From: Chiloscyllium plagiosum
Taxonomy: Eukaryota
Assembly: GCF_004010195.1 (NCBI RefSeq)
Contig: NC_057718.1
Location: 93,398,561 to 93,462,560 of the forward strand
DNA length: 64,000 nucleotides
Reading direction: 5' to 3'
The translations under genes and the position numbers were made by a program. Position 1 is the first letter of the stretch; every line of letters starts with the position of its first letter. The notes below the pieces were generated by a model. It did no database searches. It had not been told where the DNA came from and saw nothing but the letters and a program-made list of their open reading frames with translations. This document shows, one piece after another, positions 8,400-55,611 of the stretch.

Positions 8400-9240
8400 G
8401 GAGAGCAATGTAGAACTTCAAAAAGACATTCACAGGTTAGTGGAATAGGTGGTAGCTCAATTAAAATGCAGAGAAGTGTGAGATGTTACAATTTACTGCA
8501 AAGAACATAGAGAGGCAGTGCACAATAAAGGGAACTATTCTACGGGGTGGCATGATATATATATATGTATATCTCAGCTCAAATTATTGAAGGTGGCAGG
8601 ACACATACACTGAGCTGTTAAGAAAGTGCGTAGTGTTCTTCATCAATAGGGGCAAAAAGTGTGGCACTGATAAAGCACAGCTGTTCAGGCAGCATCTGAG
8701 GAGCAGAAGAGTTGATGTTTCAAGCACAAACTCAGGGATCATGATGAAGAGCTTATGCTCGAAATGTTGACTCTCCTGTTCCTTGGATGCTGCCTGACCG
8801 GCTGTGCTTTATCAGTGCCAAAGTTTTGGCTCTGCTCTCCAGCATCTGCAGTCCTCACTTTCTCCTTCATTAACAGGGGCAAAAAGTACAAGAACACAGG
8901 GAGGTTTTGATAAGCTTGCCTATGATGTTAGACCTCAGCTGGAGTATTATATACAGTTCTAGGCACCACACTTTAGGAAGGATGTGAATGCATTGGAGAC
9001 ACTGCAGCAGAGGTTTACAAGATGAAGCCCCAAGGATGAGAAAGATCAGTTCTGATCAATTGGAGAAGCCAGGACTGGAGACCTTGGAGAGCTGGAGTCT
9101 GAGGCAACTTTTGAATCTGAAATCATTTCGGGCTTGAACAGAGTAGATAGGGAGAAACCATTCCCAAACATTGACAGGAATGAGAACCAGAGGACACGGT
9201 AATAAAGTGTTTTAAAAAAAAAGCAAACTTCTGCAAAGTT
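8400..9240 (+). mobile_element. Degenerate CR1 fragment, host of a PLE insertion
   Basis: gttagacctcagctggagtattatatacagttctaggcaccacactttaggaaggatgtg (RPQLEY..QF*APHFRKDV). Confidence 0.75.
8655..8865. mobile_element. Fold-back Penelope-derived insertion (family A) with degenerate hammerhead
   Basis: Inverted arms homologous to the PLE end at 51998-52125; tgatgaagagcttatgctcgaaatgtt; flanking duplication cttcat(c/t)aa(t/c)aggggcaaaaagt. Confidence 0.8.
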
Positions 9241-9258
9241 TAACTGACACATTCTGGA

Positions 9259-9585
9259 ATGGCACGGTGGCTCAGTGGTTAGCACTGCTGCCTCACAGAG
9301 CCAGGGACCCAGATTTGATTCCAACCTCAGGTGATTGTGTGCACATTTTCCCTGTGTCTGTGCGGGTTTCCTCCGGGTTCTCCGGTTTCCTCCCACTGTC
9401 CACAAAGATCTGCAGGTTAGATGCATTGGCCATGCTACATTGCCCATGATGTGCAGGCTAGATTAGCCATGGGAAATGCAGGGTTACAGGGATAGCATAG
9501 GGGATGTGTCTGGGTAGGATGCTATTCAGAGGAGCGGTGTGGACTCGATGGGCTGAATGGTCTGCTTCCACCTTGTATGGATTGA
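9259..9585 (+). mobile_element. HE1-like V-SINE
   Basis: A/B boxes, V-domain, tail. Confidence 0.9.
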
Positions 9586-10339
9586 AAGGAGCATTGGAGG
9601 ATTATATTTTAACAGAAGCAGAGTGCAGGGTTAAGGGGGATTGGCAATAAATCCATATGCTCAGAGGGCTAGTGTAGACACGATGGGCTGAATAGCCTCC
9701 ATCTGCACTGGAGCAATTCTGTAAAATGAGTTTACCAACTCATTGAACCTCAAAGCATCCTCCATCCTAGAACTATTACTTCCAATAAAAGCTATAGTGT
9801 CTACACTCTAATTTTGATGGGTGATTCAAGCCGACACCAGGGTTGTGATGAATAATGGCAAGCAGATGGTTGTTCAAACTAAATCACACAATTTGGATCC
9901 ATTTCGTATTATACCTTCTAACTTGATCCTTCAGATTTCATTTCACAATGTTTTACACGATAATATGTCACGGATGATGGATAAGAGACTGTGAGGGGGG
10001 TCTCGGCATTGTTTCTGTTCTAACTTATTTAGATCTCCTACATATCCTTCTAACTCATAAAAGAACCATGATAATTTAGTCCCAATGGTGAGCTGTTCTC
10101 AGTTCATCTAACTTTCCTTTAGTTTTTATCCAACTTTCAATTACTGTCATGGACCGTATCTCTTTTTATACCCAATTTTGCCATAACAAAGCATGCAATC
10201 TTAGTAGATCAGCAGAAAATGGATTAAGCTTTTTAATGAGAACAAAGGAAAGTTGGAATTTTCATGGAATTGTAATGATTCATCATGCCTCTTACAGTCA
10301 ACAATCTGGGTCTTGACAGCATTCGACTAAACAAAGGCA

Positions 10340-10530
10340 AGTTAGTACTCTTTCCCCTGAGTCAGAAAGTCTGGGTGTAACACCAGTCCAAGTCTTGAAC
10401 TTGTGCTGCAGGCTGACACTCCAGTGTCGTACTGCAATGCACCATCAAAGATGTTATCATTCGAAGGGAAACAAATCACCTATTCAGGTGGACATTAAAA
10501 ATCCCATGGCAATGTTTGATGACGAGCGTG
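10340..10530 (+). mobile_element. Degenerate Deu-domain SINE fragment
   Basis: cctgagtcagaaag...ggctgacactccagtg...tcaggtggacattaaaaatcccatggca. Confidence 0.55.
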
Positions 10531-11264
10531 ACAAACATTCCTGTTGCAGCCGGTACATTGCCAGTTGCAACTTGCTGTGGTTTATGGAGATCGAGCCCTG
10601 TAGGAAGTGTGGTCCCAACTGTGGCTAAGCACTTTCGAAGGACTAATGTTTGATGTTTAGCTATATTTCTTTACTCTTCTACTTAATGCTGAGAATTGCT
10701 GTCGTGTTTAACTTCTAACATTGTTCTTTCTACCTTGTTGTTACGATTCTGTACCTAAGTACTTTGTGCCTAAGATGATGCTTTATGTGGTGCCATTGTA
10801 CTCCTGTACTTGAGTGCACGAGGCTATAAAAATCTAAATTTTCATGGCACCTCTTAAGGCTGCCTATTTCCACCTCTTCAGCTTTGCCACTGTATGAGCT
10901 AATCTGTTGCTGAAATCCTCAGTGGTCCAGAGAAACAAAAGTGCAAGAGAGGACATTGCACAGCCCATATTAAATGACAAGGTAGTCCCCACAGTCCCCA
11001 TTACAAATGCGACAGTGATGGAAGAAGCCTTACTTTTGCTGGACCCACTGGAGAACAAAGAGATCCTGGACCAGTCTGTGTACTGCGTAAATTGACATTC
11101 ATAGTTTAGTAGATGTTGTGTTGGGGTCGGTCTCTACCAGAAGCCAGGCAAAAACCAGGTCAGTTTATTGTACCTGGTATATTTGACAACACTCTACTAA
11201 ACAACATTAATACTCCTGCCCTGAGTCACTGTTCTTGCTAGACAAGTTACTGTAGAAGACATTT

Positions 11265-11445
11265 CAGTCAAAAAGTGTGGCACTGGAAAAGCACAGCCTG
11301 TCAGGCAGCATCCGAGGAGCAGGAGAGTCGATGTCTCGAGCATAAACTCTTCATCATACCCGCTCCTCAGATGCAGCCTGACCGGCTGTGCTTTTCAAGT
11401 GCTTTTTGACTCTGATCTCCAGCATCTGCACTCCTCACTTTCTCA
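11265..11445. mobile_element. Fold-back PLE family A insertion
   Basis: Inverted arms, degenerate hammerhead on the minus strand, tail ctccagcatctgcactcctcactttctc. Confidence 0.8.
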
Positions 11446-11751
11446 GAGAGGAAATTGCAGCCTTCAACAATGTCATTAAAACATTCAATTCCCATTTGAG
11501 TTTAAGAAGAAACCCTGATTCGGTCCACCAAAATTTAATGGGTGGAAACAAGGATTACAGTAAACCAAGGACTCTTCCATAAATGATTCATATCACCATA
11601 CCTATGGCACTTTGTGTGGCAACATCATATTTTTTTCACCGCACTCCTGTACTTTTGTACTTGAGGTCACGCGACAATAAAATCAAAACCAAGCTGAATT
11701 AATAGATGACATTTTGCAGATAATGGTCAATATGGAAGTTTGAAAGACAAT

Positions 11752-12063: not shown

Positions 12064-13499
12064 CCATCTGGGGCTACATTGTTCTACAGGATGAAGCATC
12101 ATCTGTATTTTTTTTTACAGTCTAAAGAAGAACTTAATTGACCAGAAGAAGTGTTTTATGCCAGAAGTTCACAAGCAACACAAGCATTTTATCTGGGATG
12201 GCAGAGAATGCTCATGGAGTCAGCCTGCTGACTATTGAATCCGGTTTGTTAATGAGAAACTTGCTAATGGGCAGGCAAAAAAACAATGGGCACAGTTTCC
12301 ACAGTGAATTCTTGTCTATGTTGTCATGGGCAAAGCCTGGATCAATGAGATCCCAGCCCAGCCATTGATGCCACACATGCAACAGGATAAGCCATTTCCA
12401 GTTACTTTTCTGACACAGCAGGGGGCATTTTGAATCAGTGGTTTGGGCATTTAAAACCAAACCACCTCAATCTGTGCCAATACAAGAAGTAATTCTACTG
12501 AGGACCAAAATGTAATCTTCTTGGGTTAAGTGATAGATCAGCAGAATGGATTCTGACATGCAGACATTATAGTATATGGTAGAAAAAGGAATTTGAAATT
12601 CAATAAGGGTAGACTTACGGATTGGGCATGCCAAGGCATGTCCGGGCGGTGGATGAGGGAGAAGAGGTGGACAGTGTGCAGCAGCAGTCAGTACAGGGCC
12701 CACTGTTATATGTCCCTAAAAGGGGCAAAACCAAAACTCCGGAGGTGGCTCAGGTTGTAGGGTCAACATACCTTTTACTCACTTCTGTAATGTGACTCTC
12801 TTTTATAGTGTTCAGGTTACAGTTCCTGAAAATTCTACTGTCTCTTCGGACGATCATCAATCTTCTCTTCAAGGAGGTGAGGAAAAGCAAAAGCTGTCCA
12901 CTCATTGTACAGAATGTGCCAAGAAGATTCAGCGACAGCAATTACTGCAGCAGTCTGATGAAAAGTTTCCTCCCAAGTTGGAAAGCTAGACTACTGCTGA
13001 GAAATAAATAGATGACCTTGTATAAGCTCGATCACAAATGAAAGCAACTGAAGATTTTAACATTTCTACAGTCAGTAAAGAGACTTTGGAACCTGAGTTA
13101 TCAAGAATTATGCAGCTTGCAAGAGATCTTCAGTCAGGCAGGCAAGCGATCTCAAAGTTCGAAACAAGTCCGAGATCACTGAACCATCAGTCAGGGTGGA
13201 CAGAGCCACTCCTTTACTGCTGAAGTAAATTCTATGCAATGCATCCTTGCACAGAGAATGAGGTTAACAGGTTTAGAAGAAAACTTCCTTCAGCAAATTC
13301 CCTGAAACAAGCCCAGAAAGTGCTGGGGAAACTCACATGCCAGGCAGCATCTGTTGAGAGTAAAACAGAGTTAACATTTTGAATCCAGTGACCTTCATCA
13401 GAGCTGAAAACAACTAGGAACGGGTGGTATTTATGCTGATGACAGGGTTAAGAGGGAATGCCTAGAATACATGGAGATGGTGCCCAGAGAGAGATAGAG

Positions 13500-13800
13500 A
13501 TTAGATTTTGATTTTGATGTTATTGTCACATATACTGAATTACTAGAGTACAGTGAAAAATGTCCAATGTCACCATACACAGCACTATCTTAGGTACAAA
13601 GGTTTCTAGCTACAAAGAACTTAGGTAGAGAGAAGTAGAAGAGAGAAACAATTTTTTTTTTAAGCAGTACAGACCATCATAGTATAAGTTGAAAAATAAA
13701 AGAATAAGGCAAAGTAAGAAGGAATAGTCAAACAAAGAGATCTTTTCTTTTTTGCTTTTATGTAATGGCTCCTCCAGGGATTTGGTCAGCAGGTTTGTCG
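13500..13800 (-). mobile_element. Non-autonomous element with Rex1-like 3' tail
   Basis: ttagattttgattttgatgttattgtcacat...tacagtgaaaaa matches the Rex1 tail at 54476-54530; similar tails at ~10740-10840, 11595-11690, 41240-41370 and 45750-45832. Confidence 0.5.
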
Positions 13801-13817
13801 ACCCTATCAATGGTGCT

Positions 13818-13895: not shown

Positions 13896-14566
13896 AAACA
13901 AAGCGATAGCTGATGGTAGGTGGAGTGGGAAATAAATAGGGTGCTAATGAGAAGTGTAAGTTTTAAAAAGGGTTGGCTGTGATGGGAGCAACCCACACAA
14001 AAAAGAATTCGAAGAGTGTGAGGGGAGGGTAACCAACATGAAAGGAGTGTTCACCTTTTGAAAACGTTGAATGCAACACTGAGGAGTTGGAGATGCTGTC
14101 AGACCTGCTGAGTTTCCCAAAAACATTATATTTTGGCTTCAGACTTTCAGCATTCATAAGACCATAGGAAATAGAAACAGGAGAAGGCCATTTAGCCCAT
14201 CAAGCCGGCTCTGCCAGTCAATATGCTCATGGTCGATCCTAAGACAGTTCTTCATTTTTAGTCCCTGAGCAGGAAGCCATCAAGAGGATTAAAGTTACTT
14301 CAGCTTGGTTATAAGGATCTTTCTGGTCAGCTTCTCAAGTCCAGGTGGGTCAAGTTGATATTGAACATGTAGAAATCATTGATCTGCATTGATGGCAATT
14401 CGTTACTGCAAGACAAACCCGTCAGTAAGCTATGGAAACACTAGAGAGTCTTTCAGCTATCAACAGAGCTGCCCTTCGACTCTATAAATATATTAGCCTT
14501 CCATGGAAATGGTGAGAATGCGCATTCATCCTGTACAATAAAGACGTGGACAGAGAGTGCTGTTGA

Positions 14567-16459: not shown

Positions 16460-16545
16460 TCAGAGTCGAGAGTGTGGTGCTGGAAAAGCACAGCAGATCA
16501 GGCAGCATCCGAGGAGCAGGATAATTGACGTGTTGGGCATAAGCA
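16460..16545 (-). mobile_element. PLE family A terminal fragment
   Basis: gtgctggaaaagcacagcagatcaggcagcatccgaggagcagga. Confidence 0.75.
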
Positions 16546-17375: not shown

Positions 17376-18450
17376 GAGGAGAAAGTGAGGACTGCAGATA
17401 CTGGAGATCAGAGCTGAAAATGTGTTGCTGGAAAAGCGCAGCAGGTCAGGCAGCATCCAAGGAGCAGGAGAATCGACGTTTCGTGCATAAGCCCTTCTTC
17501 AGGAATGAGGAAAGTGTGTCCAGCAGGCTATGATAAAAGGTAGGGAGGAGGGACTTGGGGGAGGGGCGTTGGAAATGCGATAGATGGAAGGAGGTCAAGG
17601 TGAGGGTGATAGGCCGGAGTGGGGNNNNNNNNNNNNNNNNNNNNNNNNNNNNNNNNNNNNNNNNNNNNNNNNNNNNNNNNNNNNNNNNNNNNNNNNNNNN
17701 NNNNNNNNNNNNNNNNNNNNNNNNNNNNNNNNNNNNNNNNNNNNNNNNNNNNNNNNNNNNNNNNNNNNNNNNNNNNNNNNNNNNNNNNNNNNNNNNNNNN
17801 NNNNNNNNNNNNNNNNNNNNNNNNNNNNNNNNNNNNNNNNNNNNNNNNNNNNNNNNNNNNNNNNNNNNNNNNNNNNNNNNNNNNNNNNNNNNNNNNNNNN
17901 NNNNNNNNNNNNNNNNNNNNNNNNNNNNNNNNNNNNNNNNNNNNNNNNNNNNNNNNNNNNNNNNNNNNNNNNNNNNNNNNNNNNNNNNNNNNNNNNNNNN
18001 NNNNNNNNNNNNNNNNNNNNNNNNNNNNNNNNNNNNNNNNNNNNNNNNNNNNNNNNNNNNNNNNNNNNNNNNNNNNNNNNNNNNNNNNNNNNNNNNNNNN
18101 NNNNNNNNNNNNNNNNNNNNNNNNNNNNNNNNNNNNNNNNNNNNNNNNNNNNNNNNNNNNNNNNNNNNNNNNNNNNNNNNNNNNNNNNNNNNNNNNNNNN
18201 NNNNNNNNNNNNNNATGTGGTGGAGGGCAGCGTCGACCACGTCTGGGGGGAAATTGCGGTCTTTGAAGAAGGAGGTCATCTGGGTTGTTCGATATTGGAA
18301 CTGGTCCTCCTGGGAGCAGATGCGGCGGAGACGAAGGAATTGGGAATATGGGATGGCATTTTTACAGGGGGCAGGGTGGGAGGAGGTGTAGTCTAGGTAG
18401 CTGTGGGAGTCGGTCGGTTTATAGTAAATGTTCGTGTTGATTCGGTCACG
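17376..18450 (-). mobile_element. Penelope-like retroelement, 5'-truncated, with assembly gap
   Basis: Minus-strand translation INTNIYYKPTDSHSYLDYTSSHP..KNAIPYSQFLRLRRICS (PLE RT thumb region); 3' end nearly identical to 51998-52240. Confidence 0.9.
17471..17506 (-). ncRNA. Minimal hammerhead ribozyme motif (family A), 2 stem mismatches
   Basis: attc CUGAAGA A GGGC UUAU GCAC GAAA CG UC gauu. Confidence 0.65.
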
Positions 18451-18960: not shown

Positions 18961-19060
18961 GATCTGAGGAAGGGTCAGTTGACTGAAAATGTTAACTCTG
19001 ATTTCTGTCCCGGATGCTGCCAGACCTGATGAGCTTTTCCAGCAATTTCTGATTTTGTTC
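18961..19060 (+). mobile_element. PLE family D end with degenerate hammerhead
   Basis: gat CTGAGGA A GGGTC AGTT GACT GAAAA TG TT aac followed by gatgctgccagacctg. Confidence 0.6.
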
Positions 19061-21807: not shown

Positions 21808-23420
21808 AAGTTAAAAATCACACAACACCAGGTTATAGTCCAACAGGTTTAATTGGAAGCACTAGCTTTCAAAGCTCTGCTTCTTCATCACGTGGTTGTG
21901 GAGTACACAATTGTAAGACACAGAATTTATAGCAAAAGTTTACAGTGTGATGTAACTGAAATTATCCATTGAAACATACCTTGACTGTTTGTTAAGTCTC
22001 TCATCTGTTAGAATGACCATGTTAGTTTCACTTCTTTCACATGTAAATTGCAAAACGTTTTTTTGAAGTTACATTCTTAGGTGAACTTTAACAATTGGTG
22101 TCAGCCCAGATAATGTATTGAAGGTGATAGCCCCCTGTGTGCTGCTGTCTGTGCCATAATGTTTAGACTGATTCTAATCTAAACATGAATTGACAGAATC
22201 TTAAATATATTCATGCAGTTTTTGAGCAAAGTACAATGTAACTCTGCAAGTACAGATTCATTCTACAAACGTATGTGTGCATGTGGGTTTGTGTGTGTGT
22301 GTGGTGAGGGTGTTGTGAGTGTCTGAGAGAGAGTGTATATGTGTGTGTGAGTGTAAAGGGGTCTAAGTCTGTGAGAGGATGCATGCATGAGTGTGTGTGT
22401 GTATAGGAGTGTCTGTGTATGTGTGTGTGGGTCTGTAAAGGAGTGTCTGTGTGTGTGTTTGTGTGTGTAGTGCACCTGTAGTGTGACATGAACCCAAGGT
22501 CCCGGTTGAGGCCCTCCCTATGGGTATGGAACTTAGCTATCAGCCTCTCCTCGGCCACTTTTCACTGCTGCCTGTCCCAAAGTCCGCCTTGGAGAATGGT
22601 TACCCGAAGATCTGAGAAAGGGGTCTAAGTCTGTGAGAGGATGCATGCATGAGTGTGTGTGTGTATAGGAGTGTCTGTGTGTATGTGTGTGTGGGTCTGT
22701 AAAGGAGTGTCTGTGTTTGTGTGTGTAGTGCACCTGTAGTGCCGGTTGAGGCCCTCCCCCCGGTTGAGGCCCTCCCTATGGGTATGGAACTTAGCTATCA
22801 GCTTCTCCTCGGCCACTTTTCACTGCTGCCTGTCCCAAAGTCCGCCTTGGAGAATGGTTACCCGAAGATCCGAGCTCGAATGTTCTGGACCACTGTAGTG
22901 TTCCCCAACTGGGTGGGAAAACTCCTGTCTGTTGGTTGTTGTGCGGTGCCCATTCATCTTTGTAATTTGCTCAAAAGCTGAATAAATCCATGTAAGACTC
23001 TGTTAATTCATTTTTAGATTAGAATCTAAACATTATGGCACAGACAGCAGCACACAGGGGGCTAACACCTTCAACACATTATCTGGGCTGACACCAATTG
23101 TTAAAGTTCACCTGAGAACTTGAGAATGTAACTTTTTAAAAAAAAATTGTGATTTGCATGTGAAATAAGTGAAACTAACACAGTCATTCTAACAGATGAG
23201 AGACTTAACAAACAGTCAAGGTATGTTTCAATGTATAATTTCAGTTACATCACACTGTAAACTTTTGCTGTAAATTCTGTGTCTTACAANNNNNNNNNNN
23301 NNNNNNNNNNNNNNNNNNNNNNNNNNNNTGCTTCCAATTAAACCTGTTGGACTATAACCTGGTGTTGTGTGATTTTTAACTTTGTACATTCCTGTCCAAC
23401 ACCGGTATTTCCAAATCAAG
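21808..23420. mobile_element. Penelope-like insertion (family B) with long inverted arms and duplicated GIY-YIG C-terminus
   Basis: ~21808-22270 is inverted relative to ~22960-23385; minus-strand AEERLIAKFHTHREGLNRDLGFMSHY occurs twice; flanks accaattttgaag (21798) / accatttttgaag (23424). Confidence 0.85.
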
Positions 23421-25610: not shown

Positions 25611-25886
25611 GTGGACGTAGGTTTGCACGCTGAGCTGGAAGGTTCATTTCCAGATGTTTCGTCACCCTACTAGGTAACATCTTCAGTTTCTTATACATAT
25701 TCATTATAAATGTTTCTTATAAACATATAAATAGAAAGCAGGAATCATGTACATTGCTTCGCCTGGAGGCCCACTGAAGATGTTACCTAGTAGGGTGACG
25801 AAACGTCTGGAAATTAACCTTCCAGCTCAGCGAGCAAACCTGAATCCAGTATCTCAACCTGAGCTACAAATCTTCTCAAAACTCAC
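25611..25886. mobile_element. Fold-back PLE-derived insertion (family C)
   Basis: ~70-bp inverted arms (25618-25687 / 25773-25841), one-sided tail also seen at window positions 1-35, flanks attggccatt / attggtcatt. Confidence 0.8.
25771..25810 (+). ncRNA. Minimal hammerhead ribozyme motif (family C)
   Basis: cca CUGAAGA U GUUACC UAGUAG GGUGAC GAAA CG UC ugg: full core, stem I cca/ugg, 6-bp stem II. Confidence 0.8.
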
Positions 25887-27352
25887 ATTGGTCATTATAA
25901 ACACCCACCTTCTGTGAGTGAAGAAAATCAATGTCCGGCCTACAAATTACTTCTGATCTACAGGATCTGAAATAGCATTGCAAGCCACTTCGACAATTAG
26001 GAACAGGCTACAAATGTCACCCTTGCTACTGACAGGAGGGGGATTCACAACGCTGCATTACAAGCCTTTGAAACATTATTTCCTTTCTTTGCATTTGCCA
26101 GTGAACCTTTCTGTTGAACCCCAGGCCTGGTTCAGAAACGTGGTTGACAGACCAGGAATACTCCTCCACGTTGACAGAGCAAATTGACCTTAGCTAGAAC
26201 TCAGCTAGTAACTTGGATGGTAACATTAGCCTCAATACTATTAGGTAAAGGAAAAGGAAGATCAGCCCACTGTCCCACTCCGGCTATAGCTTCTCCAGCT
26301 GTTAACCTGAGATCAACAGCAACAAGCTTGCATCTAAGTCAGAGGGGTATTTTCTAAGTACACTCCTTGTACTTATGACATTTGTCTCTTCTCCCAGGAT
26401 GTGTTATTGGGTGAGGGTTGTTTGATGTAGTTCATTGTCACCAATCCTTCTATACCTTTGCTTTATCTTGGGCCTACCTGGTGATGAGTAGTAGTGGATA
26501 CACAGTTGTAGAATATATAACGAAGAGGCACTGTTCGGAGGTAACAAGGAGTTTGCATTCTCTTTTGTGTCTTGTCTGTTAATAGCATCCTCTGCCACCA
26601 GACCTACTGTATATAGTATTGTTTTAATGTGTCCAGCTTCAGTCTTCGGGCTGAATCTTATCAGGGTCTGAGCACATGGGCTATGGGGAGATTTGTGGCA
26701 GAATTGGACAAGAAGTCAAGAGCATCTTATTGCATCCTCTATGTTATTGCCGAGCGGCAAGGTGAGTTTCTCATAAGGCAGTGAAGAGTTGCCAATGAAG
26801 TGGGATTAAAGCTCATTATGGCTTATTAACAGCCCAACTCGCCTCATTAACATTCAGCTTTCTATCTCGTAAAGAGCATCAAATGAGCGAGATGTCGAGA
26901 ATTCTCAATATAGAAGTCCGAGTGGGTGCCTGCTGATTTCAGCTCATCAAAGGTTGCCAACATCTTTGATGTTGTTCAGGATCGAACAACCCTTGTGTCT
27001 CGTGGGCTCAGCCATTTCTCTCTGGTGGGTGTTGATATCCTGTTTTACAAGACAGAAGAGAGAAACATTGATGTGGCCGGTGGTTGGAAGAGGTGTGCAA
27101 TGTATGGCATTGACAGTGGGCTCACTATGAGTCTTGCAGTGATAGGAAGAATGGCACCTACTTGGTTGGCAGTTCTTGGATGTCTCAGGAGCCCACAGGA
27201 GTGGTCCTGACCATCTCCTGCAAGGGCCAGGATTCCCTCCTCCTGAATAAGCTTTGATTGGAAATAAACCAATAATTTTACTCTACTAAAGAAACCATGC
27301 TGATAGAGCCTTTTATTTTAAATGTCCTCTAATGCGCATTTGTTAAATGCAA

Positions 27353-27652
27353 AGTTAAAAATCACACAACACCAAGTTATAGTCCATCAGGTTTAATTGG
27401 AAGCACTAGCTTTCGGAGCACCGCTCCTTCATCAGGTGGTTGTTGGTGTTATGCTGAAGACTGGAGGAGTGTATTGCTGCTCTAATCCCATTATTGCATG
27501 AGTCAAAAAACACAGTAAAAATATTTTTACCACCAGATGAAGGAGTAGCGCTCTGAAAGCTAGTCCTTCCAATTAAACCTGTTGGACTATAACCTGGTGT
27601 TGTGTGATTTTTAACTTTGTACACCCCAGTCCAACACCGGCATCTCCAAATC
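27353..27652. mobile_element. Fold-back PLE family B insertion
   Basis: ~86-bp inverted arms, one-sided tail gtacaccccagtccaacaccggcatctccaaatc, flanks ttaaatgcaa (27343 and 27657). Confidence 0.85.
27404..27438 (-). ncRNA. Minimal hammerhead ribozyme motif (family B)
   Basis: cac CUGAUGA A GGAGC GGU GCUCC GAAA GC UA gug: full core, perfect stems. Confidence 0.82.
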
Positions 27653-28794
27653 ATTATTAAATGCAATTTGGTTGTAACGTGATTTGTGAATTGCGGACCT
27701 TTTTAATAAAGAGAACTCCCGTTTGCTGTTACGCAACTCCATCCCCGGTACTTACCTGAACAGCAAAACTCAGCCTTAAGATTCTCTGTCTGCAAAATGC
27801 AAATTCAGTGTGTTCAGCAAAAACAGGAATGCAATCAGCTCTACAAGCCTTGAAACTTAGCTTGAAACTGGGAATTGTAGTCTACATTTAGAAGGAACTT
27901 TATTTCAAACCAGGGGAGGAGAATCTCAAGGAGAACTGGAATTCCACGTCAGGATCACATGGTCAGTCAGCTCTGGTGAAGAGCTTCATGAAAGGTAATC
28001 AGTGATTTTAGTATTAAAGTGTTAAATTTACCATATTATTTCATTAAAGTATACGATTTAAAGATTACCTTGGGTTGTGCTATCATTTGTGTTAGGCTAA
28101 CTGCTATTTTTGTGTCGATATTTACTGATATTTTTGATGGTTCACCCCAACCCGTTTTTTTTCCCATAGGTCTCATTATTTATATAGCGTGATTTTCTAT
28201 AACATGATGTTCCCCCCACCAGTGGGAATACAACCACCGCATTATAGGAGAACTATATGTAATGTATTTAATAGGCCATCTTGGCAATTGGGAAAAATAT
28301 TTTTACTGTGTATTCTGACCCATGCAGTCATGGGATTAGAGCAACAATACACTCCTCCAGTCTTGAGCATAACACCAACAACATTTAAATTTAGAGATGG
28401 GCCAAATAGAAATTTGACATCTCGAAGAAAACTATCATTAAGATGCGGAATTGCTTCCAAACTAGACACTAAATCATAAACTCAACAAGTAAATACGTGA
28501 TTGTGTTCAATAAAACTGATCAAAGCATATAGAAGGGCACAGATAATGACTTTCACCTAGTTTTTAACAATGGATCTAATTTGAGAAGAAATCAAATTCT
28601 TGAAAAAGAGCAAAATTTAACAAAACAGTTCACCATCCAGGCGAATCTGTAAATAATTTCATGAACGCTTTGTATAGAATAGTGGAAAATTCTCAAGAAA
28701 CAGAATAACTGTTGGAAGTTTTCATGAGTAGTTGTCAGATTTATTACAATCCAAGGAAGATTTGACTTTGAAGAAAGCTATTCAGATTGTGCTG

Positions 28795-33685: not shown

Positions 33686-34180
33686 TGATGTGGAGGTGCC
33701 GGTGTTGGACTGGGCTGGACAAAGTTAAAAATCAGACTATATCAGGTTATAGTCCAACACATTTATTTGGAAGCATAGCTTTCAGAGCACTGCAGCTTTA
33801 CCAGGTATCTAATGGGGAGGGATCATAGACCACCGAATTTATAGTAAAAGATCAAAGTGTCATACAACTGATGCAATGTATTGACAATCCTAGATTGCAG
33901 TTAAGTCTTCAATCACTTAGAATGTGGTTGCAAGTTTCGATTCATTAATATGTAAATGCCAGAACATCTTTCAAGCCACATTCTAAGTGATTAAAGGCTT
34001 AAGAGCAATGTAGGTTTGTTCAATACGTTGCATCAGTTGTATGACACTTTAACCTTTACTATAAATTCCGTGTCCTATGATCCTGCCCCACTATCTGCCT
34101 GAGGAAGAAGCAGCACTCCAAAAGCTAATCCTCCCAAATAAACCTGTTGGCCTATAACTTGGTGTTGTGGGATTTTTATC
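33686..34180. mobile_element. Older fold-back PLE family B-like insertion
   Basis: Long inverted arms sharing ttatagtccaac..tttatttggaagc; degenerate hammerheads (ctgaggaagaagcagcactccaaaagcta). Confidence 0.75.
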
Positions 34181-35694
34181 ATTGGCTCTTGGCAGCCACG
34201 TAACTGGAAACAACTATTAACATTGATCTATCAGGAAAGCACAGTCAAGTCAGCGATGTAAACTGGAAGGGAGAGAGCACAGGCAGACTATCATTTGTTC
34301 AGCTGACACAGGGTGGAATTTGGATTCTGATTCGGTTTGCTGGAGTTGAAACGTTAACTCTGTATCTCTCTACGGATGCTGCCCTGGCTTGCTAAGATTC
34401 TCTAGCACTTTGTAAGGTTTTTGTGAAACTTTCTGTTTTTGTTTGAGATTTTCAGCCTCTGCAATTCCTTGTTTTACTTAAGAATAGAAATCTGTTCAGT
34501 TCACAAATAAAACAACTTTTTTTTTAGATTGATTGAATTTGATTGTTGGCTCTGGTGATATTGTATGGGTTACAGTAAAGATTTGCTGTAGATATTCTAC
34601 ATGCGGCTGTACTCTGAGATCAAATAAATTTAGTCATCCCCGTTGCAGACAGTGATGGAATTTAGTCTGTTTACTTGCTCTCTTCAGGGCCTATGGTTTA
34701 TAATTTAGTTGCTTTAAAAGCATTGTTTATTTTTATTGAAATCCCATCAATTGCTTCAAGAGTGCCTGTGATAGCACTCACAGACCATTACACTTTTTAA
34801 AGCATTATATCCTAATTGCACTGGAATCACACACACACTGTGGCTGAAGATATGGTTTCATTACAATGCCGTTTTCAGACAGCGTGATAATTGACACAGC
34901 CTCATTAAGGCTGACTCCAGAATCTTGGGAAAATAGGCTCTGAGAACGAGGATTTGTATTAGCGCTGTGCCAACAGTGCAGCTGAGAACTCAACATGTCT
35001 GATTCTGTTAGCTCAGCTCATTTACACCATTGCAATATGCATAGTGCTACAGCCACATGGGTGTTATACTGTGTGCACCAGCTCCTTATGGGCTACTGAT
35101 TGAATTTTGACTTACTGGTTGACCTCAAAATGGACCCTTCGCAGCTCTATATTCTGGGTGTTTGCTGGGAAAGGAAATGAATAGTTCCTCAGGCTTCAGA
35201 ATTGACCCTTCAATGACAGACAAGATACCTTGATGGAGGGAGTGCAGCAAAAGGGCATGTTTTGAGGGCAGAGGAGCTTGGAAATAAAATGGGCAACAAA
35301 CACAGCAGGAAGTCACACATGAAAGCGCACACTATCAGTCCTGGACAGAGTAGGTCTCTAGCCTGAGACAGAGTGCCAAGATATGGTTGATTTGAATTTG
35401 TCAACTGTGATGATACCAATCCTGGTATGATGGAGACCTCCTGCTACAGTGGACTGGACAAAGCACTGGGACAAATTCTTCTGTCTCATTCTGCAAACAA
35501 TAATGGCCTGTGTTTTCCAATGATCAGATAATTATTTCTGCAGTCTGGGTGGGAATTACACATGGGAACCTGGGGGTTACTTGATGAAACAGACTCCAAG
35601 GGACTCGCTAAGGAAATTGAAGATGCAGATGAGCAATTCCCTTTCGTCTGGAACCCTCCAAACCTGTCGATTTCAATTGTTAATTTCAGATAGT

Positions 35695-38177: not shown

Positions 38178-38530
38178 ACCATAAGACCAGAAGACATAGG
38201 ACCAGAAATTATGCCATTCAGCCCATCGAATCCACTCCGCCATGCAATCATGGCTGATAGGTTTCTCAAGTTGAAGAGTGTGGTGCTGGAATTGCACAGC
38301 TAGTCAGGCAGCATCAAAGGAGGAGAATCAACGTTTCAAGCCCCAGTCTCCCACTTTCTCCCCATCACTCCTGATCTGCTTGACAATCTTTCTATCTCCG
38401 TCTTAAATATACTCAATGACCTGACCTCATTGAGTATATGGCAATAAATTCCATAAATTCACCACTCTCTGGCTGAAGAAGTTTCTCCTTATCTCCATCC
38501 TAAATGATCTTCTCTTTACTCTAAGATCTA
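38178..38530 (-). mobile_element. CR1 3' end with a PLE family A fragment inserted (~38270-38340)
   Basis: (cataagac) tail, CR1 UTR; gtgctggaattgcacagctagtcaggcagcatc. Confidence 0.75.
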
Positions 38531-42611: not shown

Positions 42612-42720
42612 TTAGCAGTGCTCCAAAAGCTAGTGCTTCCAAATAAACCTGTTGGACTATAACCTGGTGTTGTGTGATTTTAACTTTGTACACCCCAGTC
42701 CACCACCGGCATCTCCAAAT
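42612..42720 (+). mobile_element. PLE family B terminal fragment inserted in the CR1 tail
   Basis: Matches ~27545-27650; flanked by ctatgatt on both sides. Confidence 0.8.
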
Positions 42721-43763
42721 CTATGATTCTCAGATCCAGTGTAAACACAAGACGATATTGTTGCTGTTTATTTTACTCTAACCTCACCTCAATCACTTAT
42801 TTAACAATTCTAATCATGAAAAATAACCAAATCACCCATTTTCTGTTAAAATGACTGAAAACAAAAAGTGCAGGAGATCACAGCGGGTCAGACAGCATCC
42901 AGGGAAGGAGAGCAAACTAATGTTACAAGTCAAGATGACTCTTCATCAGAACTGTTACAATGTAATGCTGACTTCAGTAATGACTGACAATGGATTGAAA
43001 ATGAACAGGGAGTTACTTTACAGGATTTTACAGGGAACCAAAATCTAACCAATACTTGCAACCCAAACCACCCAGCGCAGGAACAAAGGAAAGCTTGAAT
43101 TCTCCAATAAGCATTCAGTTATCATCTTGACCCTTAGTGGAAAGTGGCTCTCCTGTGCAATTTATTTTCCCCCCTAGTGGTAAGGATTGGATCTGCTGCA
43201 ATTTCCAGGAGATAACCAAACCTGAATATTCTCAAACTGTAGGCTCTGCACGCATGATAACTTAATGGGATTCCAATAAACTTGTTGCACCCAGTGAATC
43301 AGAAGTTATGGATTTGGTGAAGACAACCAGAGGAAGTGGTTGAAGAGAACATTGGGAATCAAGAGGAAAAATGACCCATTATTTCTCCAAAGGTTTTTTT
43401 TAAACCAGATTCAACTGAAGTTGTTGCAGGAGACAAGGAAGACTATAGATCTCTACCTCTTGATAATGGCCACCTCCTGTCAGTAGTATTCTGGAAGCAT
43501 TTGTAAGCATATGATTTAAAATGATAAAGGTGGACTTTCCTTTCAGCTTTTGCCTTCACTCCTCTGAAGAAATCGCTGATCTTGACTCCACACCTCCCCA
43601 TGAGAGTGTGGACATGTAGAGTCAATGTTTGTTGGCAGGAACCAACCCAATGACCTGCAATGATGTTGGACCTTTTCATTTTGCCATGAGTTGTTCATAT
43701 TTGATCACAATTTGCAATCCAAATGTTTTGAGCTGCCATCTGATTTTAGCTGATCATATACAG

Positions 43764-44240
43764 GGGAGGCAATGGCCTAATGGTATTATCATTAACCCCA
43801 GAGACCCATGTAATGGTCTGGGGACCCAAGTTCAAGACCTGACATAGCAGATGGTGAAATTTAAGTTCAATACAATCTAGAATTAAGAGTGTAATGAAGA
43901 CCACAAAATCATTGTTGATTGTCAGGAAAAAACTCCATCTGGTTCACTAATGTCCTTTGGGGAAGGAAACTGCCATTGTTCCCGATGAAGTGCTCTTGAT
44001 CCAGACGTCGAGTCTCCTGCTCCTCGGATACTGCCTGACCTGCTGTGCTTTTCCAATACCACACTCTTGACTCTGATCCCCAGCATCTGCAGTCCTCACT
44101 TTCTCCTCGCTGCCAGCGTTACCTAGACTAGCTTACATGTGACTCCAGACCCACAGTAATGTGGTTGTCTCTTCAGTGTCAGCTGGGCAACAAATTCTGA
44201 CTCAGCCAGTGATGCCCTCATCCTGTGACTCAATTTAAGA
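43764..44240 (+). mobile_element. tRNA-derived SINE (second family) with a PLE family A fragment inserted at ~43978-44108
   Basis: A box tggcctaatgg, B box gttcaagacc; body is the reverse of 59258-59590. Confidence 0.75.
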
Positions 44241-44764: not shown

Positions 44765-44949
44765 GAGAAAGTGAGGCCTGCAGATGCTGGAGATCAGAGT
44801 CAAAAAATGTGGTGCTGGAAAACACAGCCCGGTCAGGCAGCATCTGAGGAGCATTCCTGATGAAGAGCTTATGCTTGAAACATCGACTCTCCTGCTCGTC
44901 AGATGCTGCCTGACCTTCTGTGCTTTTCTAGCGCCACATTTTTTGACCC
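44765..44949. mobile_element. Fold-back PLE family A insertion with hammerhead-like core (44853-44888, +)
   Basis: attc CTGATGA A GAGC TTAT GCTT GAAA CA TC gact; perfect 15-bp flanking duplication cacaatgtttatgag. Confidence 0.85.
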
Positions 44950-45159
44950 CACAATGTTTATGAGTCCAACGAAATCGCAAGCTCATTGTGTTAATGGCTG
45001 AAGACAGATTGCATGCAAATTAAATCAGATATGATTCTTTTTAATAGCTCCTTCAATATTTCTGCACGGATTTGCACTTGGGTAGAGTCATCTGCTTCTT
45101 ATCACTAGGCCTGCTGCTTCCTTCTTTTTTTTTCTCTGACATCAAGTTCGTTTCACCTT

Positions 45160-46803: not shown

Positions 46804-47119
46804 CAGAACAACCTCGGTTATCCGAACATCGATTATCCGAATTTTGGATTATCTGAACAAGGTCTCAAGGTCCCGATGCTTGGTAAAAACAATGACTGCA
46901 GATACTGGAAACCAGAGTCTAGATTAGAGTGGTGCTGGAAAAGCACAGCAGGTCAGGCAGCATCCGAGGAGCAGGAAAATCGACGTTTTGGGCAAAAGCC
47001 CTTCACCAGGAATACAGGCTGGGTAAACTGTGTTATCTGAACATTCGATTATCCAAACATTTGATGACCCGAACAAAATACTCACTGTCTATGTCCTTCG
47101 GATATTTGAGGTTACCCTG
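46804..47119. mobile_element. Tigger/pogo-like MITE (same family as 6390-7810) with a PLE family A fragment inserted at ~46885-47020
   Basis: cagaacaacctcggttatccgaac ... ttcggatatttgaggttaccctg followed by TA. Confidence 0.75.
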
Positions 47120-51985: not shown

Positions 51986-52089
51986 TCTCCTATCCTGGAG
52001 AAAGTGAGGTCTGCAGATGCTGGAGATCAAAGTTGAAACTTTATTGATGGAACAGCACAGCAGGTCAGGCAGCATCCAGGGAACAGGAG

Positions 52090-52125
52090 ATTCGACGTTT
52101 CGGGCACAGGCCCTTCTTCAGGAAT
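52090..52125 (-). ncRNA. Minimal hammerhead ribozyme motif (family A), intact
   Basis: auuc CUGAAGA A GGGC CUGU GCCC GAAA CG UC gaau: full core, perfect stems I and II. Confidence 0.85.
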
Positions 52126-52276
52126 GAGCAGAGAGTGTTCAGCAGGAGAAGATAAAAGGTAGGGAGGAGGGACTTGGAGGAGGGGAGTTGGAAATGTGAT
52201 AGGTGGAAAGAGGTCAAGGTGAGGGTGATAGGTCGGAGTAGGGTGGAGGCGGAGAGGTCAAGAAGAAGACTGCAGG

Positions 52277-53044
52277 TCAGGAGGGCGGTGCCGGGCTGGA
52301 GGGATTCGGCTGAGACAAGTTGGGGGGAGGGGGGATGAAGAAACTGGTGAAGTCCAAGTTCATCCCCTGTGGTTGGAGGGTTCCCAGTCGGAAGATAAGA
52401 TGCTCCTCCTCCGACCGTCGGGTTGTTGTGGTTTGGCGGTGGATGAGTCCAATGACCTGCATATCCTCGGTGGAGTGGGAGGGGGAGTTGAAATGCTGTG
52501 CTACAGGTTGGTTGGGTTGGTTCGTCCGGGTGGCCCAGAGGTGCTCTCTGAATCGCTCCGCAAGTAGGCGGCCTGTCTCCCCAATATAGAGGAGGCCACA
52601 CCGGCTGCAGCGGATGCAGTAGATGATGTGGGTGGAGGTGCAGGTGAATCTGTGGCGGATATGGAAGTTTCCTTTGGGGCCTTGGAGAGAAGTGAGGGGG
52701 GAGGTGTGGGCGCAAGTGTTGCACCTCCTGCGGTTGCAAGGGAAGGTGCCGGGAGTGGTGGTTGGGTCGGTGGGGGGTGTGGATCTGACAAGGGAGTCGC
52801 GGAGGGAGTGGTCTCTACGGACAGCTGATAGGGGAGGGGAGGGAAATATATCCTTGGTGCTGGGGTCTGTTTGGAGGTGGCGGAAGTGACGGCGGATGAT
52901 GCGCTGTACATGGAGATTGGTGGGGTGGTAGGTGAGGACCAGTGGGGTTCTGTCCTGGTGGCGGTTGGAGGGGCGGGGCTCAAGGGCGGAGGAGCGGGAA
53001 GTGGAGGAGATGCGGTGGAGGGCACCGTCGACCACGTCGACCAC
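52277..53044 (-). CDS. C-terminal part of the PLE polyprotein: linker, Cys motif and GIY-YIG endonuclease (no true start)
   Basis: PLVLTYHP, PCNRRRCNTC, IIYCIRCSRCGLLYIGETGRLLAERFREH, EEEHLIFRLGTLQPQGMN. Confidence 0.9.
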   Translation of the reverse strand: MVDVVDGALHRISSTSRSSALEPRPSNRHQDRTPLVLTYHPTNLHVQRIIRRHFRHLQTDPSTKDIFPSPPLSAVRRDHSLRDSLVRSTPPTDPTTTPGTFPCNRRRCNTCAHTSPLTSLQGPKGNFHIRHRFTCTSTHIIYCIRCSRCGLLYIGETGRLLAERFREHLWATRTNQPNQPVAQHFNSPSHSTEDMQVIGLIHRQTTTTRRSEEEHLIFRLGTLQPQGMNLDFTSFFIPPPPNLSQPNPSSPAPPS

Positions 53045-53131
53045 GGTGCCCTCCTATCCTGCCATCATGCTTGAATGTGAATTACAACTGGCTCCAGGTG
53101 AAAGAATTTGAAAGTAGTACGCTTGCTGGTA

Positions 53132-53682
53132 CAGGTAGGTAGTTCTGGGATAATGCACGTTTCACCAGTGCGATTTGGCTATAATGTCGCTTAAGAAGTA
53201 GGAAACGGGATTTTCAATAACGTTTACCTCTGTTGGTAATAGAGCGATTCCAGCGGGGATCAGCTCGCGTGCTGCGTTCTGCGGATGCGCCGATGTCGGT
53301 GCTTGTCTTCGCGCTGTTCTGCGCATGCGCCAATTCCTGTGCCGAAGTTTCTGCGTTGACCTGCGCATACGCCAATGTCAGCTGCCAACAGAGCAGCTTT
53401 CTGTAACAGGTACTGTACAAAGAGCAGTTTTTTTTACATCTTTTTAATTCACTATGTTAAACTTACTTTTGTTTCATTAATAAATGTGATTTAAACCTTC
53501 ATTCAGGCTGTGCTATACTTTGCATTAGACTTTTAGGCGAATTTTCAGTGATCGTGCGTGATATTTTTTACGGGTCTGCTCAAAACCACTTTTCCAATAG
53601 GCCCCATCATTCCTATTACGCGATTTTCTATTAAATGAGGTTTCGCTGGAATGCGACTGTGGCGTGAAAGGAGAACTATCTG
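53132..53682. mobile_element. Probable Tigger-like MITE (right half also at ~28030-28261)
   Basis: Ends tacaggtaggtagttct / agaactatctg; shared cgattttctat..ggagaacta end with 28190-28261. Confidence 0.55.
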
Positions 53683-54475
53683 CATTTTTTTTTCCGGCTG
53701 TGTTGTCAAATCAGACTGCTGAATAATATTTCCCTGATAGGCTAATTAGAAACTTGCATGGAAACAATTGCCTGGGCAGTTTGAACAAAAGAAAAAGGCA
53801 AAGCCACATCAGATTTCTTCCTGCAATCACAGTTCCATTTTGCCGAAAGCTTGCAATGAGCAAACAGAGTATCCTGCGGTAAGGTGCCCAGTAAGTGCAC
53901 AAAAGGTAACTGTATTTTTTGAGTAAGCAATTCCAGAAAACTGGTGGTAAATGGACCTTAGCAAAAATGCAAATAGACGACTTGCAGCTGTGAGAATCAG
54001 CCATCTTTGACATTGACAATATGGAGTACAGATGAAGGCTTTTGTCTCAGTACAATGGCGTGGTTCTGCGAGGTCTGTGAGTGATCTGCACTTGTGGAAG
54101 TGTTCTGGAAAATGAATTATCTTCACATTTGAAACCGCCCCTGTTCAGCAGCAGAAGAATGCTGCGGCATTTTATTTTTGTTCTTTTATGGGATATGGAT
54201 TTCCCTGGCCAGGTCACTTACTTGGCCTATAACTGTACAGTTTATTGGCCAAGAGTCAACCAACTGCTGGATCACTGGTCACCCTGAATGGATAACATGG
54301 GATAATTTGTTCTTACAGCAAATTATATAATTTTCTTTTGCAATAATCAATGAGAGCTCATGGCCTCATTGCTGAGACTAGCTATTAATTCCAGATTGTA
54401 ATTAACTAAACATATTAGACTCTGTGAGCTGGTGGCATTTGAACCTGTGCCCACAACCAAGCAGCCTGGACCTTT

Positions 54476-55215
54476 GATTTGATTTAGTTTGGTTTATTAT
54501 TGTCACATGTACCTGGGTACAGTGAAAAGTTTTGATTTGTGTGCGGTACAGTGCAGACCGTACTATACAAAGTGCTTTAGAGTACTGGAACAGTGGTACA
54601 GTGGTTAGTACTGCAGCCTCATAGTGCCAGCGACTTGGGTTTGATTCCAGCCTCGGGTGACTGTCTGTGTGGAGTTTGCACCTTCTCCCCGTGTCTGCAT
54701 GAGTTTCCTCCCACAATCCAAAAGATGTGCAGGTCAGGTGAATTGGCCATGCTAAATTGCCCATAATATTAGGTGCATTAGTCAGGGGTAAATATAGGGT
54801 GGGGGAATGGGTCTGGGTGGGTTATTCTTTGGAAGGTCAGTGTGGACTTGTTGGGCTGAAAGGCCTGTTTCCATACTGTAGGGCTTCTAATCTAAATACA
54901 ATGCTGCAGCTGCAGCAAAGGTGCACAGAGAGTGAGATCAACATTACATTTAAATTTGGAGCATTCCATTCAGAAGTCTAATAAAAGCTGGGAAAAAAAA
55001 TTGATTCATATATGTATACAAATCTCTATATCGTCTGCCTGATGGAAGAGGTTGGAAGAGATTATAACTGGGGTGGGAGGAGTCTTTGATTTTGTTGGTT
55101 GCTTTCCCAAGGCAGTGGGAAGTATAGATAGAGTAAATGGTTGGAAGGTTGGTTTGTGTGATAGACTGGGCTATGTTCACAACATTCTGTAGTTGCTTAC
55201 CATCTTGGGAAGAGT
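54476..55215 (-). mobile_element. Rex1/Babar LINE 3' end, interrupted by an HE1-like SINE
   Basis: ORF 54950-55180 AQSITQTNLPTI..KDSSHPSYNLFQPLPSGRRYR; (tttga)n tail. Confidence 0.85.
54590..54895 (+). mobile_element. HE1-like V-SINE
   Basis: A/B boxes, V-domain, tail. Confidence 0.9.
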
Positions 55216-55611
55216 TTGGTTGATGATTCCAATTGCAGTCTTACTGTACCGCAATTTCCCCCAAAAATAAACAGTTGCTCAACAATGAATGGAGCTGAGT
55301 TTTGTGGAGAATCTTTCCTCTTGTCTGCCACAGCTCGAGGGTTGCAAATAGCGAGAGAGACCAACGCAGTGGAGTTGCTGAAACGAAACCAGAAAGCGGA
55401 GAAATGTGGCAGGTCCGGAAGCATCTGCAAAGAGAGAAACGGAGCTAACGTTTCGAGTCCAGTGATCCGTTGTTGGAATTGAAACCGTGAAATAGTGGTG
55501 TTTATGCTGATGATGAGGTGGGAAGGGGGAAGGAGTGAGACAGATAGTTGCAGACAGTGACCAGAGAGAGAGAGAGAGAGAGTAAAGATTGAAAAGTCAT
55601 GTAATGTTCCA

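Follow-up and report, generated by a model that had tools for sequence, protein, structure and literature searches.

PLE remnants in the window

The stretch analysed here (the window) comprises 64,000 nucleotides of Chiloscyllium plagiosum contig NC_057718.1 and holds remnants of Penelope-like retroelements (PLEs) with hammerhead motifs (Table 1). A search with family profiles, built from copies within the window, recovered 29 arms in 22 insertions (12 arms in family A, 7 in B, 2 in C and 8 in D). The motif-bearing pieces are PLE end-pieces, made up of pseudo-LTR and tail. For families A and B, an ORF with RT and, at its C terminus, a GIY-YIG domain is seen upstream of the motif repeat, whereas the link for D is indirect.

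Table 1. Features of the window, in window coordinates.
Feature	Position	Strand	Remarks
Family A head-to-head pair	8652..8866	short arm -, long-tailed arm +	23-bp duplication, 2 mismatches; both motifs decayed
Family A head-to-head pair	11266..11445	both	decayed motif 11357 (-); weak duplication (11/14)
Family A head-to-head pair	44765..44949	both	motif 44857 (+) CpG-decayed; perfect 15-bp duplication
Family A short arm (motif 3′ half) and opposite-orientation 18-bp long-tail stub	38268..38360	both	
Family A stub, start inside helix II	16460..16545	-	
Family A single stub	43978..44106	+	motif decayed
Family A single stub	46891..47013	-	two changes in core
Second long family A PLE copy	17378..18450	-	assembly gap 17625-18214; RT-thumb fragment 18220-18447
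5′-truncated family A PLE	51998..53050	-	RT end, zinc-finger-like linker and GIY-YIG domain, 3′ UTR, hammerhead, long tail
258-aa open frame, CX4CxxC linker and GIY-YIG endonuclease	52277..53053	-	shark proteins 60-70% identical
Intact minimal hammerhead A	52090..52125	-	helix I 4 bp, helix II GGGC/GCCC, palindrome ACGU
Family B head-to-head pair	21808..23418	both	13-bp duplication
Family B head-to-head pair	27350..27653	both	13-bp duplication; inverted copy of nearby DNA in centre
Intact minimal hammerhead B	27404..27438	-	helix I 3 bp, helix II GGAGC/GCTCC, palindrome AGCU
Local source DNA	28289..28382	+	copied inverted (92% over 90 bp) to 27439-27532, centre of 27350 pair
Family B head-to-head pair	33686..34184	both	both motifs decayed; 17-bp duplication, 3 mismatches
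Family B single stub, start inside helix II	42614..42720	+	12-bp duplication
Family C head-to-head pair	25612..25888	both	10-bp duplication, 1 mismatch
Intact minimal hammerhead C	25771..25810	+	helix I 3 bp, helix II 7 bp, palindrome ACGU
Family D copy with upstream pseudo-LTR (TATA-like box)	13302..13500	-	decayed motif at 13401
Family D copy with upstream pseudo-LTR	55378..55577	-	very decayed motif at 55476
Family D stub, decayed	18963..19059	+	
Family D stub	30150..30236	-	motif 30235 (-), both core halves; 8-bp duplication
Family D stub, motif 3′ half alone	34340..34413	+	
Family D stub, decayed	42857..42953	-	
D-like piece, tail alone	14091..14153	+	
Old D-like stub, motif hardly readable	61475..61597	+	
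Degenerate PLE endonuclease remnant	56378..56656	-	tblastn E=1.5e-9 and 9e-12

Family A motifs lie ∼150 bp behind a GIY-YIG ORF that has shark PLE homologues. The 5′-truncated copy at 51998 is flanked by a perfect 11-bp target-site duplication and has a 38-bp palindrome at its 5′ junction; its open frame matches Pfam PF01541 (E=1.7e-4) with 22.2 bits, slightly below the cut-off of 22.6, and its hammerhead is predicted to be cut between 52094 and 52093. For family B, the minus arm of the pair at 21808 carries a C-terminal PLE endonuclease remnant (22763-22957; 78–84% identity to carpet-shark proteins), UTR and a decayed motif at 21891, and in the plus arm an assembly gap covers the motif. A longer relative of this remnant is just 26% identical to the family A protein. 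A CX4CxxC linker occurs in the open frame at 52277 and in the B relatives P0025, P0030 and P0035; the Neptune/Nematis clade is defined by a CX2-5CxxC linker before GIY-YIG (PMC8557442). Judged by sequence, A and the relatives of B carry a zinc-finger linker of Neptune/Nematis type, with the clade reading based on the linker and the RT core lying outside the window.

No ORF is attached to family C within the window. The degenerate endonuclease remnant at 56378 could have belonged to the D copy at 55378 as its upstream part before later insertions split it off. Among 154 open frames of at least 62 aa outside self-repeats, 150 gave just two sub-threshold Pfam matches and no host gene, a search that short exons would escape; the remaining four overlap known retroelement ORFs. 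The 94 bp upstream of 27435 were considered as a B subfamily repeat and rejected, as they are an inverted copy of the local DNA at 28289.

Hammerhead motifs exceed chance expectation

A sequence-only pattern gave 8 matches, compared to 0.60 ± 0.75 expected, and none of 100 shuffles reached 8; the families account for seven of these matches. A structure-aware descriptor gave 7 matches (null mean 0.06, maximum 1 among 200 shuffles). A motif complete in core, helix II and palindrome, and with at least 3 bp in helix I, was found in three copies and in 0 of 200 shuffles. These three are the copies scored as intact by a strict minimal-hammerhead descriptor, at 52121 and 27435 on the minus strand and 25774 on the plus strand. 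The motif excess is real, not chance. Two of the structure-aware matches (33327 and 10881, both minus) lie outside all families; these, together with a match at 12955 (plus), were rejected, as they belong to no family and lack helix I. A search of the window against Rfam found no hammerhead family at E up to 1, with three miRNA-like hairpin matches instead.

Both halves of the core are kept in 18 of the 29 arms. The core (CUGANGA, GAAA and UH), with an extra base after A9, is complete in six family copies from the structure-aware or pattern scans and in 30235, and is decayed in the rest; copies 16552, 42605, 18964, 13401, 42949 and 55476 were read from alignments rather than in a fixed register. 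The helix II opening G10.1-C11.1 is intact in 52121, 27435 and 25774. Helix III is a palindrome (ACGU in A and C, AGCU in B), and helix I comprises 4 bp in 52121 and 3 bp in the intact B and C copies, where 4–5 bp are expected of a PLE minimal hammerhead. Helix II is 4–5 bp long in A, B and D, and in D a U apparently occupies the cut position. Per Mb, on a basis of 62.3 kb, these counts correspond to 289 recognisable cores (95% range 171–457) and 48 intact motifs (range 10–141).

An earlier, sequence-only reading of this DNA is partly borne out. The motifs it listed are present at the positions given, which for several minus-strand motifs are those of the cut-site end; its estimate of ∼15–20 motifs in 64 kb agrees with the 18 arms that keep both core halves, and the high density it described holds. 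Its assignment to PLE-type minimal type I hammerheads with palindromic stem III likewise holds. The minimal-descriptor search it proposed finds the three complete copies; the Rfam search does not recover the motif. Several individual stems need correction. In family A, GGGC/GCCC at 52090 is intact, but the hammerhead of the second long copy (17471-17506) reads GGGC/GCAC, with one helix II pair broken, and 44853 is GAGC/GCTT and has lost its palindrome. For family C, 25771 is intact, but 25650 no longer has a palindrome, nor the 5′ strand of its helix I. The family D stems at 18961, 13370 and 42919 were listed with no mention of decay, yet D has no intact copies. That reading did not include the D copy at 30235 (minus) with both core halves, nor did it note that arms are paired head to head, that there are target-site duplications or that PLE ORFs are attached.

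Three lineages and weak covariation

Families A and D have a common tail, and each profile also matches copies of the other family; hence we regard them as related subfamilies. It follows that the ‘at least four distinct families’ of the sequence-only reading stand as profile families but represent three independent lineages (A+D, B and C).

Because across-family MAFFT alignments were out of register, base pairs were counted in family A alone; B, C and D have too few or too decayed copies for such a count. Among the seven A copies, covariation, which had been proposed as a check family by family, was not above column shuffles (score, 162/500; compensatory pairs, 307/500). Helix II contains a single compensatory pair, G-C in two copies versus A-U in three, and 89% of its cells are paired, compared to 19–40% for slid whole structures. 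A family A pattern search of metagenome and viral contigs gave no matches, and hence no outside loci for covariation. Between families, stems differ yet are paired; within family A, the self-compensation described earlier is not significant.

Architecture of the insertions

Eight insertions are head-to-head pairs, and all eight consist of one long-tailed and one short arm. The centres of these pairs are unlike one another. Duplication scores for the pairs were 17, 15, 10, 10, 8, 7, 5 and 2, compared to a null 95th percentile of 5 and 99th percentile of 8.2 (273 random pairs). Target-site duplications therefore exceed the null 95th percentile in six of the eight pairs; the other two pairs and 7 of 12 single insertions showed no duplication above the null, and at 38268..38360 none was found. 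No same-strand tandem array or dimer of motif units, the arrangement of non-LTR retrozymes, is present in the window. Of the three intact motifs, two pair with their own antisense arm when folded (39/42 and 33/37 nt). Among ten tails, just two (z −3.3 and −2.5) have a stem-loop that is clearly better than shuffles.

Arm starts and promoter-like sequence

None of the 29 arms starts at the cut site. Of the core-bearing arms, with boundaries placed by eye, 11/18 start at −8 to +1 of the core, six start further upstream and one is indeterminate. The depth of family A RNA reads falls from ∼880 to ∼180 across the 5′ edge of the motif, and 158 reads diverge at 52125, the first base of helix I. In both long A copies, a YYANWYY initiator match has this base as its A. 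A TATA-like hexamer lies 26–32 bases before an initiator-like A (−4 to −9) in five of the seven copies with readable upstream sequence (three B and two D, one D initiator being mismatched), against a background of 1.5% for such a pair; neither of the two family A copies has a TATA box. These initiator-like and TATA-like motifs at the arm starts suggest that the element RNA begins there. One caveat is that this suggestion is post hoc and draws its TATA support from two families. Drosophila Penelope, moreover, has a TATA-less promoter starting 46 bases before an intron (PMC2377424), and hence the TATA/initiator geometry is not universal.

Origin of the stubs

As a whole, the observations are in all likelihood best explained by PLE-end minimal type I hammerheads, mostly decayed and likely inactive stubs of three lineages, made by downstream-primed reverse transcription of uncut RNA. 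Reverse transcription would likely start 80–100 bases downstream of the motif, on uncut RNA, and often run off at the predicted start of the element RNA just before the motif. The element protein would nick both target strands 10–20 bases apart, and one copy would be primed at each of two start sites ∼33–36 bases apart. Such two-site, both-strand priming would yield pairs in which a long and a short arm meet head to head, flanked by target-site duplications. In source elements the motif would be active solely when dimeric or when assisted by the element protein; in the dispersed copies it is probably a passenger. With 18 motifs recognisable and three intact, what we see is a dense, likely mostly inactive instance of a retroelement feature already known, not a load of working ribozymes. 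The very large ribozyme load inferred earlier does not follow, as the intact motifs have no same-strand tandem partner and two of them fold onto an antisense arm.

Tentatively, we extend this to a specific model: shark PLE RNA may start, via a TATA/initiator pseudo-LTR promoter, at the first base of the hammerhead, with the repeat's 5′ copy primed internally to give run-off cDNAs of 100–130 bases that are inserted from both strands at two start sites, a process that could mass-produce stubs and hairpins headed by a hammerhead, with ∼10^6 recognisable and ∼10^5 intact motifs per genome. It is also conceivable, though we find it rather unlikely, that stubs of the same PLE origin have their ends at the motif owing to stalling or template switching of reverse transcriptase at the folded hammerhead, rather than to a start of the RNA at that point. 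A stall predicts almost the same boundary as an RNA start; the boundary falls on the 5′ strand of helix I, and several arms (16545, 8733, 38346 and 42614) do start inside helix II. However, folding of the motif is weak (−7.7 to −11 kcal/mol) and does not exceed that of shuffles, and the main boundary lies beyond the last helix, on initiator-like bases, with the TATA-like boxes of B and D at the expected distance. Unconstrained co-folding of two motif copies gave no active dimer fold, a result that is uninformative for such weak helices.

We consider it improbable that the stubs propagate themselves as non-autonomous elements akin to retrozymes or SINEs, with active, selected ribozymes and a large functional load. 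Non-LTR retrozymes have been reported in one chondrichthyan genome, the sole one sampled in that study (10.64898/2026.07.22.740005), family A RNA reads are many, and the family A DNA contig depth of 4.6 million over the motif (8–26 in the flank), while not a copy number, is a sign of great abundance. Among the 40 of 75 rows listed, moreover, motif variants fall at N7, loop II and position 1.3, with none in the core or helix II. Against this, tandem arrays are lacking, pair centres are dissimilar, upstream promoter-like sequence is missing from the stubs, and 15 of the 18 cores are disrupted, frequently through changes of CpG type. The RNA data point the same way: ∼74% of family A reads (830/1120 at 52091) have a U·U mismatch in helix I, the reads derive from both strands, and no RNA-end pile-up was seen at the cut site, albeit in a weak test (one poly(A) single-cell run, ∼2% read). 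That ordinary repeats resemble the short core pattern by chance is hardly credible. The Rfam result, the non-significant covariation within family A and the two descriptor matches outside the families would fit with chance, but the core, the extra base after A9, G10.1-C11.1 and a palindrome are retained in three unrelated lineages, with stems that differ yet pair, at the known PLE hammerhead site, and none of 200 shuffles yields a complete motif.

Relation to known elements

The motifs resemble the minimal hammerheads of metazoan PLEs (Cervera and De la Pena 2014, PMC4209133) in their type I core, extra base after A9, G10.1-C11.1, palindromic 15.2-16.2 and short helix I. As in that work, there are several sequence families per genome, mostly single motifs of truncated PLEs, and some opposite-strand pairs 100–700 bp apart; the helix II length in A, B and D and the apparent U at the cut position in D are different. 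The insertions are similar to those of endonuclease-bearing PLEs (Arkhipova et al. 2013, PMC3846280; Craig et al. 2021, PMC8557442) in having an inverted 5′-truncated copy, a 30–40-bp one-ended tail, duplications (8–10 bp in theirs), junction palindromes and captured host DNA. Here, by contrast, most insertions are just 90–300 bp, duplications extend to 15–23 bp, and the source of one captured spacer is 750 bp away. Like non-LTR retrozymes (Li, Clavereau, Pollet 2026, 10.64898/2026.07.22.740005), the stubs have a type I hammerhead derived from a PLE pseudo-LTR; retrozymes form same-strand tandem repeats, whereas the copies here are single or head-to-head. Given that the association of minimal hammerheads with PLE ends and the inverted-arm and tail architecture are already published, the finding is an ordinary one, and the high density and the start-site model are modest additions to a known PLE feature.

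In vitro, the anole Poseidon element PAc (Frangieh et al. 2024, PMC11167929) primes internally at two sites, cuts both strands and uses an uncut RNA substrate. Its reverse transcription starts 85–92 bases downstream of the cut site, at two adjacent sites, and no RNA ends were found at the cut site. PAc belongs to the Penelope/Poseidon clade, whereas A and the relatives of B, judged by sequence, have the Neptune/Nematis-type linker. The stubs, coming from three lineages, lend genomic support to what was shown for this lizard element: uncut RNA copied from two start sites, with priming on both strands. They also point to a candidate RNA start at the edge of the ribozyme, which bears on the role of the PLE hammerhead.

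Published counts of minimal hammerheads per genome are ∼4,000 for the coelacanth and ∼9,000 for Xenopus tropicalis (PMC4209133); the 48 intact motifs per Mb found here differ from such per-genome counts in coming from one window. No shark appears in the passages of that paper covered here or in two of its supplements, and we found no paper in the open-licence literature on the abundance of such motifs in sharks. Shark genomes may far exceed the motif counts of coelacanth or frog. If RNA does start at the hammerhead and the stubs are run-off cDNAs, counts would lie far above these published vertebrate counts, and shark genomes would constitute a natural record of the PLE integration reaction.

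Hammerhead motifs on PLE end-pieces

A sequence-pattern scan of the window gave eight hammerhead matches, compared to 0.60 expected. Seven matches were obtained with a descriptor also requiring helix II (null, 0.06), and three (52121-, 27435- and 25774+) when the palindrome and helix I were added (0 of 200 shuffles). These data confirm that hammerhead motifs are present. Of the copies listed as typical in the sequence-only reading, these three are intact, whereas 17471, 44853, 25650 and all of family D are damaged. Two core-like matches lying elsewhere (see table) exceed the shuffle expectation (0.06); they are probably due to chance.

Family profiles, which were derived from window copies and hence are circular for those copies, identified 29 arms (2,982 bp, 4.8% of called bases) in 22 insertions. 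Both core halves are retained in 18 arms (A, 7; B, 5; C, 2; D, 4). The motifs are real and are accounted for as end-pieces of Penelope-like retroelements (PLEs). Family C has no ORF in the window and is built like the other families; a longer relative of the B-lineage endonuclease is 26% identical to A. PLE-derived stretches also occur inside annotated shark/ray proteins (P0004, P0026-P0029, P0039 and P0040; kinase-domain, GPCR, PPP1R12A-like, XRCC5, septin), reflecting either mis-annotation or exonised PLE pieces.

At least four distinct families had been proposed. Families A and D share a tail and their profiles cross-match, and thus there are three lineages. Self-compensating stems were claimed in the same reading. 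Between lineages, stems differ in sequence yet stay paired (G10.1-C11.1 is retained). Within family A, by contrast, covariation is not above shuffles; 86% of cells are paired, versus 19-40% for slid structures.

The window as a whole is vertebrate-like DNA (G+C 42%; 1,706 N), with ~36% self-repeat and RT fragments that we take to be CR1-type. Nearest homologues of its retroelement proteins are carpet-shark proteins (60-70% and 78-84%), which marks the DNA as shark-like. No host gene was recognised in the window by Pfam on 150 of 154 open frames of at least 62 aa outside self-repeats.

Features of the window
Position	Feature	Details
8-34	Family C tail	Additional to the 22 insertions
6537-7734	Minisatellite	32-bp unit, ~38 copies; three frames open
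10830-10881, 33280-33327 (minus)	Core-like matches	Long loops, no helix I; outside every repeat family
11282-11400, 33906-33998	PLE inverted pairs	miRNA-like hairpin matches in Rfam, under gathering scores
17378	Family A copy	Extends as far as RT thumb
21891	B motif	Preceded by endonuclease remnant from second PLE lineage
25688-25767	80-bp AT-rich spacer	Between family C arms; no source found in window
27439-27532	Inverted copy	92% to 28289-28382, 750 bp away
45109-45576	Non-repeated, G+C-richer	Open frame of 155 codons, no Pfam match
51998-53050	5'-truncated PLE	258 open codons, CX4CxxC linker, GIY-YIG domain; ORF, ~150 bp UTR, hammerhead, 97-base tail; 11-bp duplication
53240-53400	CpG-rich	Recurring GCGCATGCGC-like words, presumably NRF1-like; likeness to housekeeping promoter; CpG o/e 0.87 in 53001-54000
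53455-53642	Similar stretch	67% alike to 28020-28211
61972-63453	42-bp repeat region	Loosely tandem, purine-rich

Arm starts and insertion

None of the 29 arms starts at the predicted cut site, indicating that the copied RNA was uncut there. The available text of PMC11167929 describes the same for an anole element in vitro. Core-bearing arms start mainly at -8..+1 of the core (11/18), with 6/18 further upstream and 1/18 not placed. The main rival explanation is that these starts result from a stall at the folded motif. In family A RNA reads labelled as the same species, depth is ~880 over the core and ~180 forty bases upstream; 158 reads diverge at 52125, where both long A copies have the A of an initiator match. 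This edge coincides with that of the arm starts. Three B and two D copies carry a TATA-like hexamer 26-32 bases ahead of an initiator-like A (-4 to -9; background 1.5%), using motif definitions that we assume, in a post hoc test of copies that are not independent within a family. Under transcription from such a start, priming within the transcript's first repeat would give run-off copies, and priming from both target strands at two start sites would give head-to-head pairs.

Eight insertions are head-to-head. In every pair, one arm reaches the full tail end (in one, as an 18-bp tail stub) and the other stops ~33-36 bases short, an architecture matching PLE insertions in the available portions of PMC3846280 and PMC8557442. 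With boundaries placed by eye, target-site duplications exceeded the null 95th percentile for 6/8 pairs (4/8 beyond the 99th) and 5/12 single insertions. The 27435 B arm has its start at precisely the position predicted for B (-8) and runs via a 5-base match into the inverted copy at the centre of its insertion, probably reflecting a template switch to adjacent DNA while integration took place. The spacer between family C arms is either element sequence or captured DNA.

Ribozyme activity

The motifs probably do not work as ribozymes in place. For published minimal hammerheads, monomers gave no cleavage and dimers gave weak cleavage (PMC4209133), the anole motif requires the element protein (PMC11167929), and 1/9 frog dimers cut (preprint), as far as the accessible parts of these sources go. 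No intact motif in the window has a same-strand tandem partner. In predicted folds, the B motif pairs with its own antisense arm over 33/37 nt and the C motif over 39/42 nt. The inverted pairs that score as miRNA-like hairpins in Rfam (see table) would form double-stranded arms, which could enter editing or small-RNA pathways. In ~74% of family A reads, helix I contains a U.U mismatch, and thus the perfect helix I of 52121 is a minority state. RNA reads showed no pile-up of ends, a weak test on one poly(A) run. Among the variants listed for family A reads (40 of 75 rows), the changes fall at N7, loop II and 1.3, outside the core and helix II, which speaks for selection in the source elements.

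Genomic load

A very large ribozyme load had been suggested. In this one window, recognisable cores are dense (289 per Mb; 171-457), but intact motifs, none with a same-strand tandem partner, number 48 per Mb (10-141), and a large load of working ribozyme does not follow. Extrapolated from one window to a genome presumed to be a few Gb, these densities would give ~10^6 recognisable and ~10^5 intact motifs. By comparison, the available text of PMC4209133 gives 4,000 motifs for coelacanth and 9,000 for Xenopus, using a different descriptor. The part of 10.1101/443036 at hand describes an expansion of PLEs within the introns of whale shark. In the open-licence literature (supplements may cover them), we found nothing on shark PLE hammerheads except retrozymes in one chondrichthyan, per the accessible part of 10.64898/2026.07.22.740005. 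Tentatively, and at slightly below an even chance, we propose that the PLE transcript starts at the hammerhead's first base and that internal priming with run-off insertion on both strands may have left motifs in such numbers per genome.
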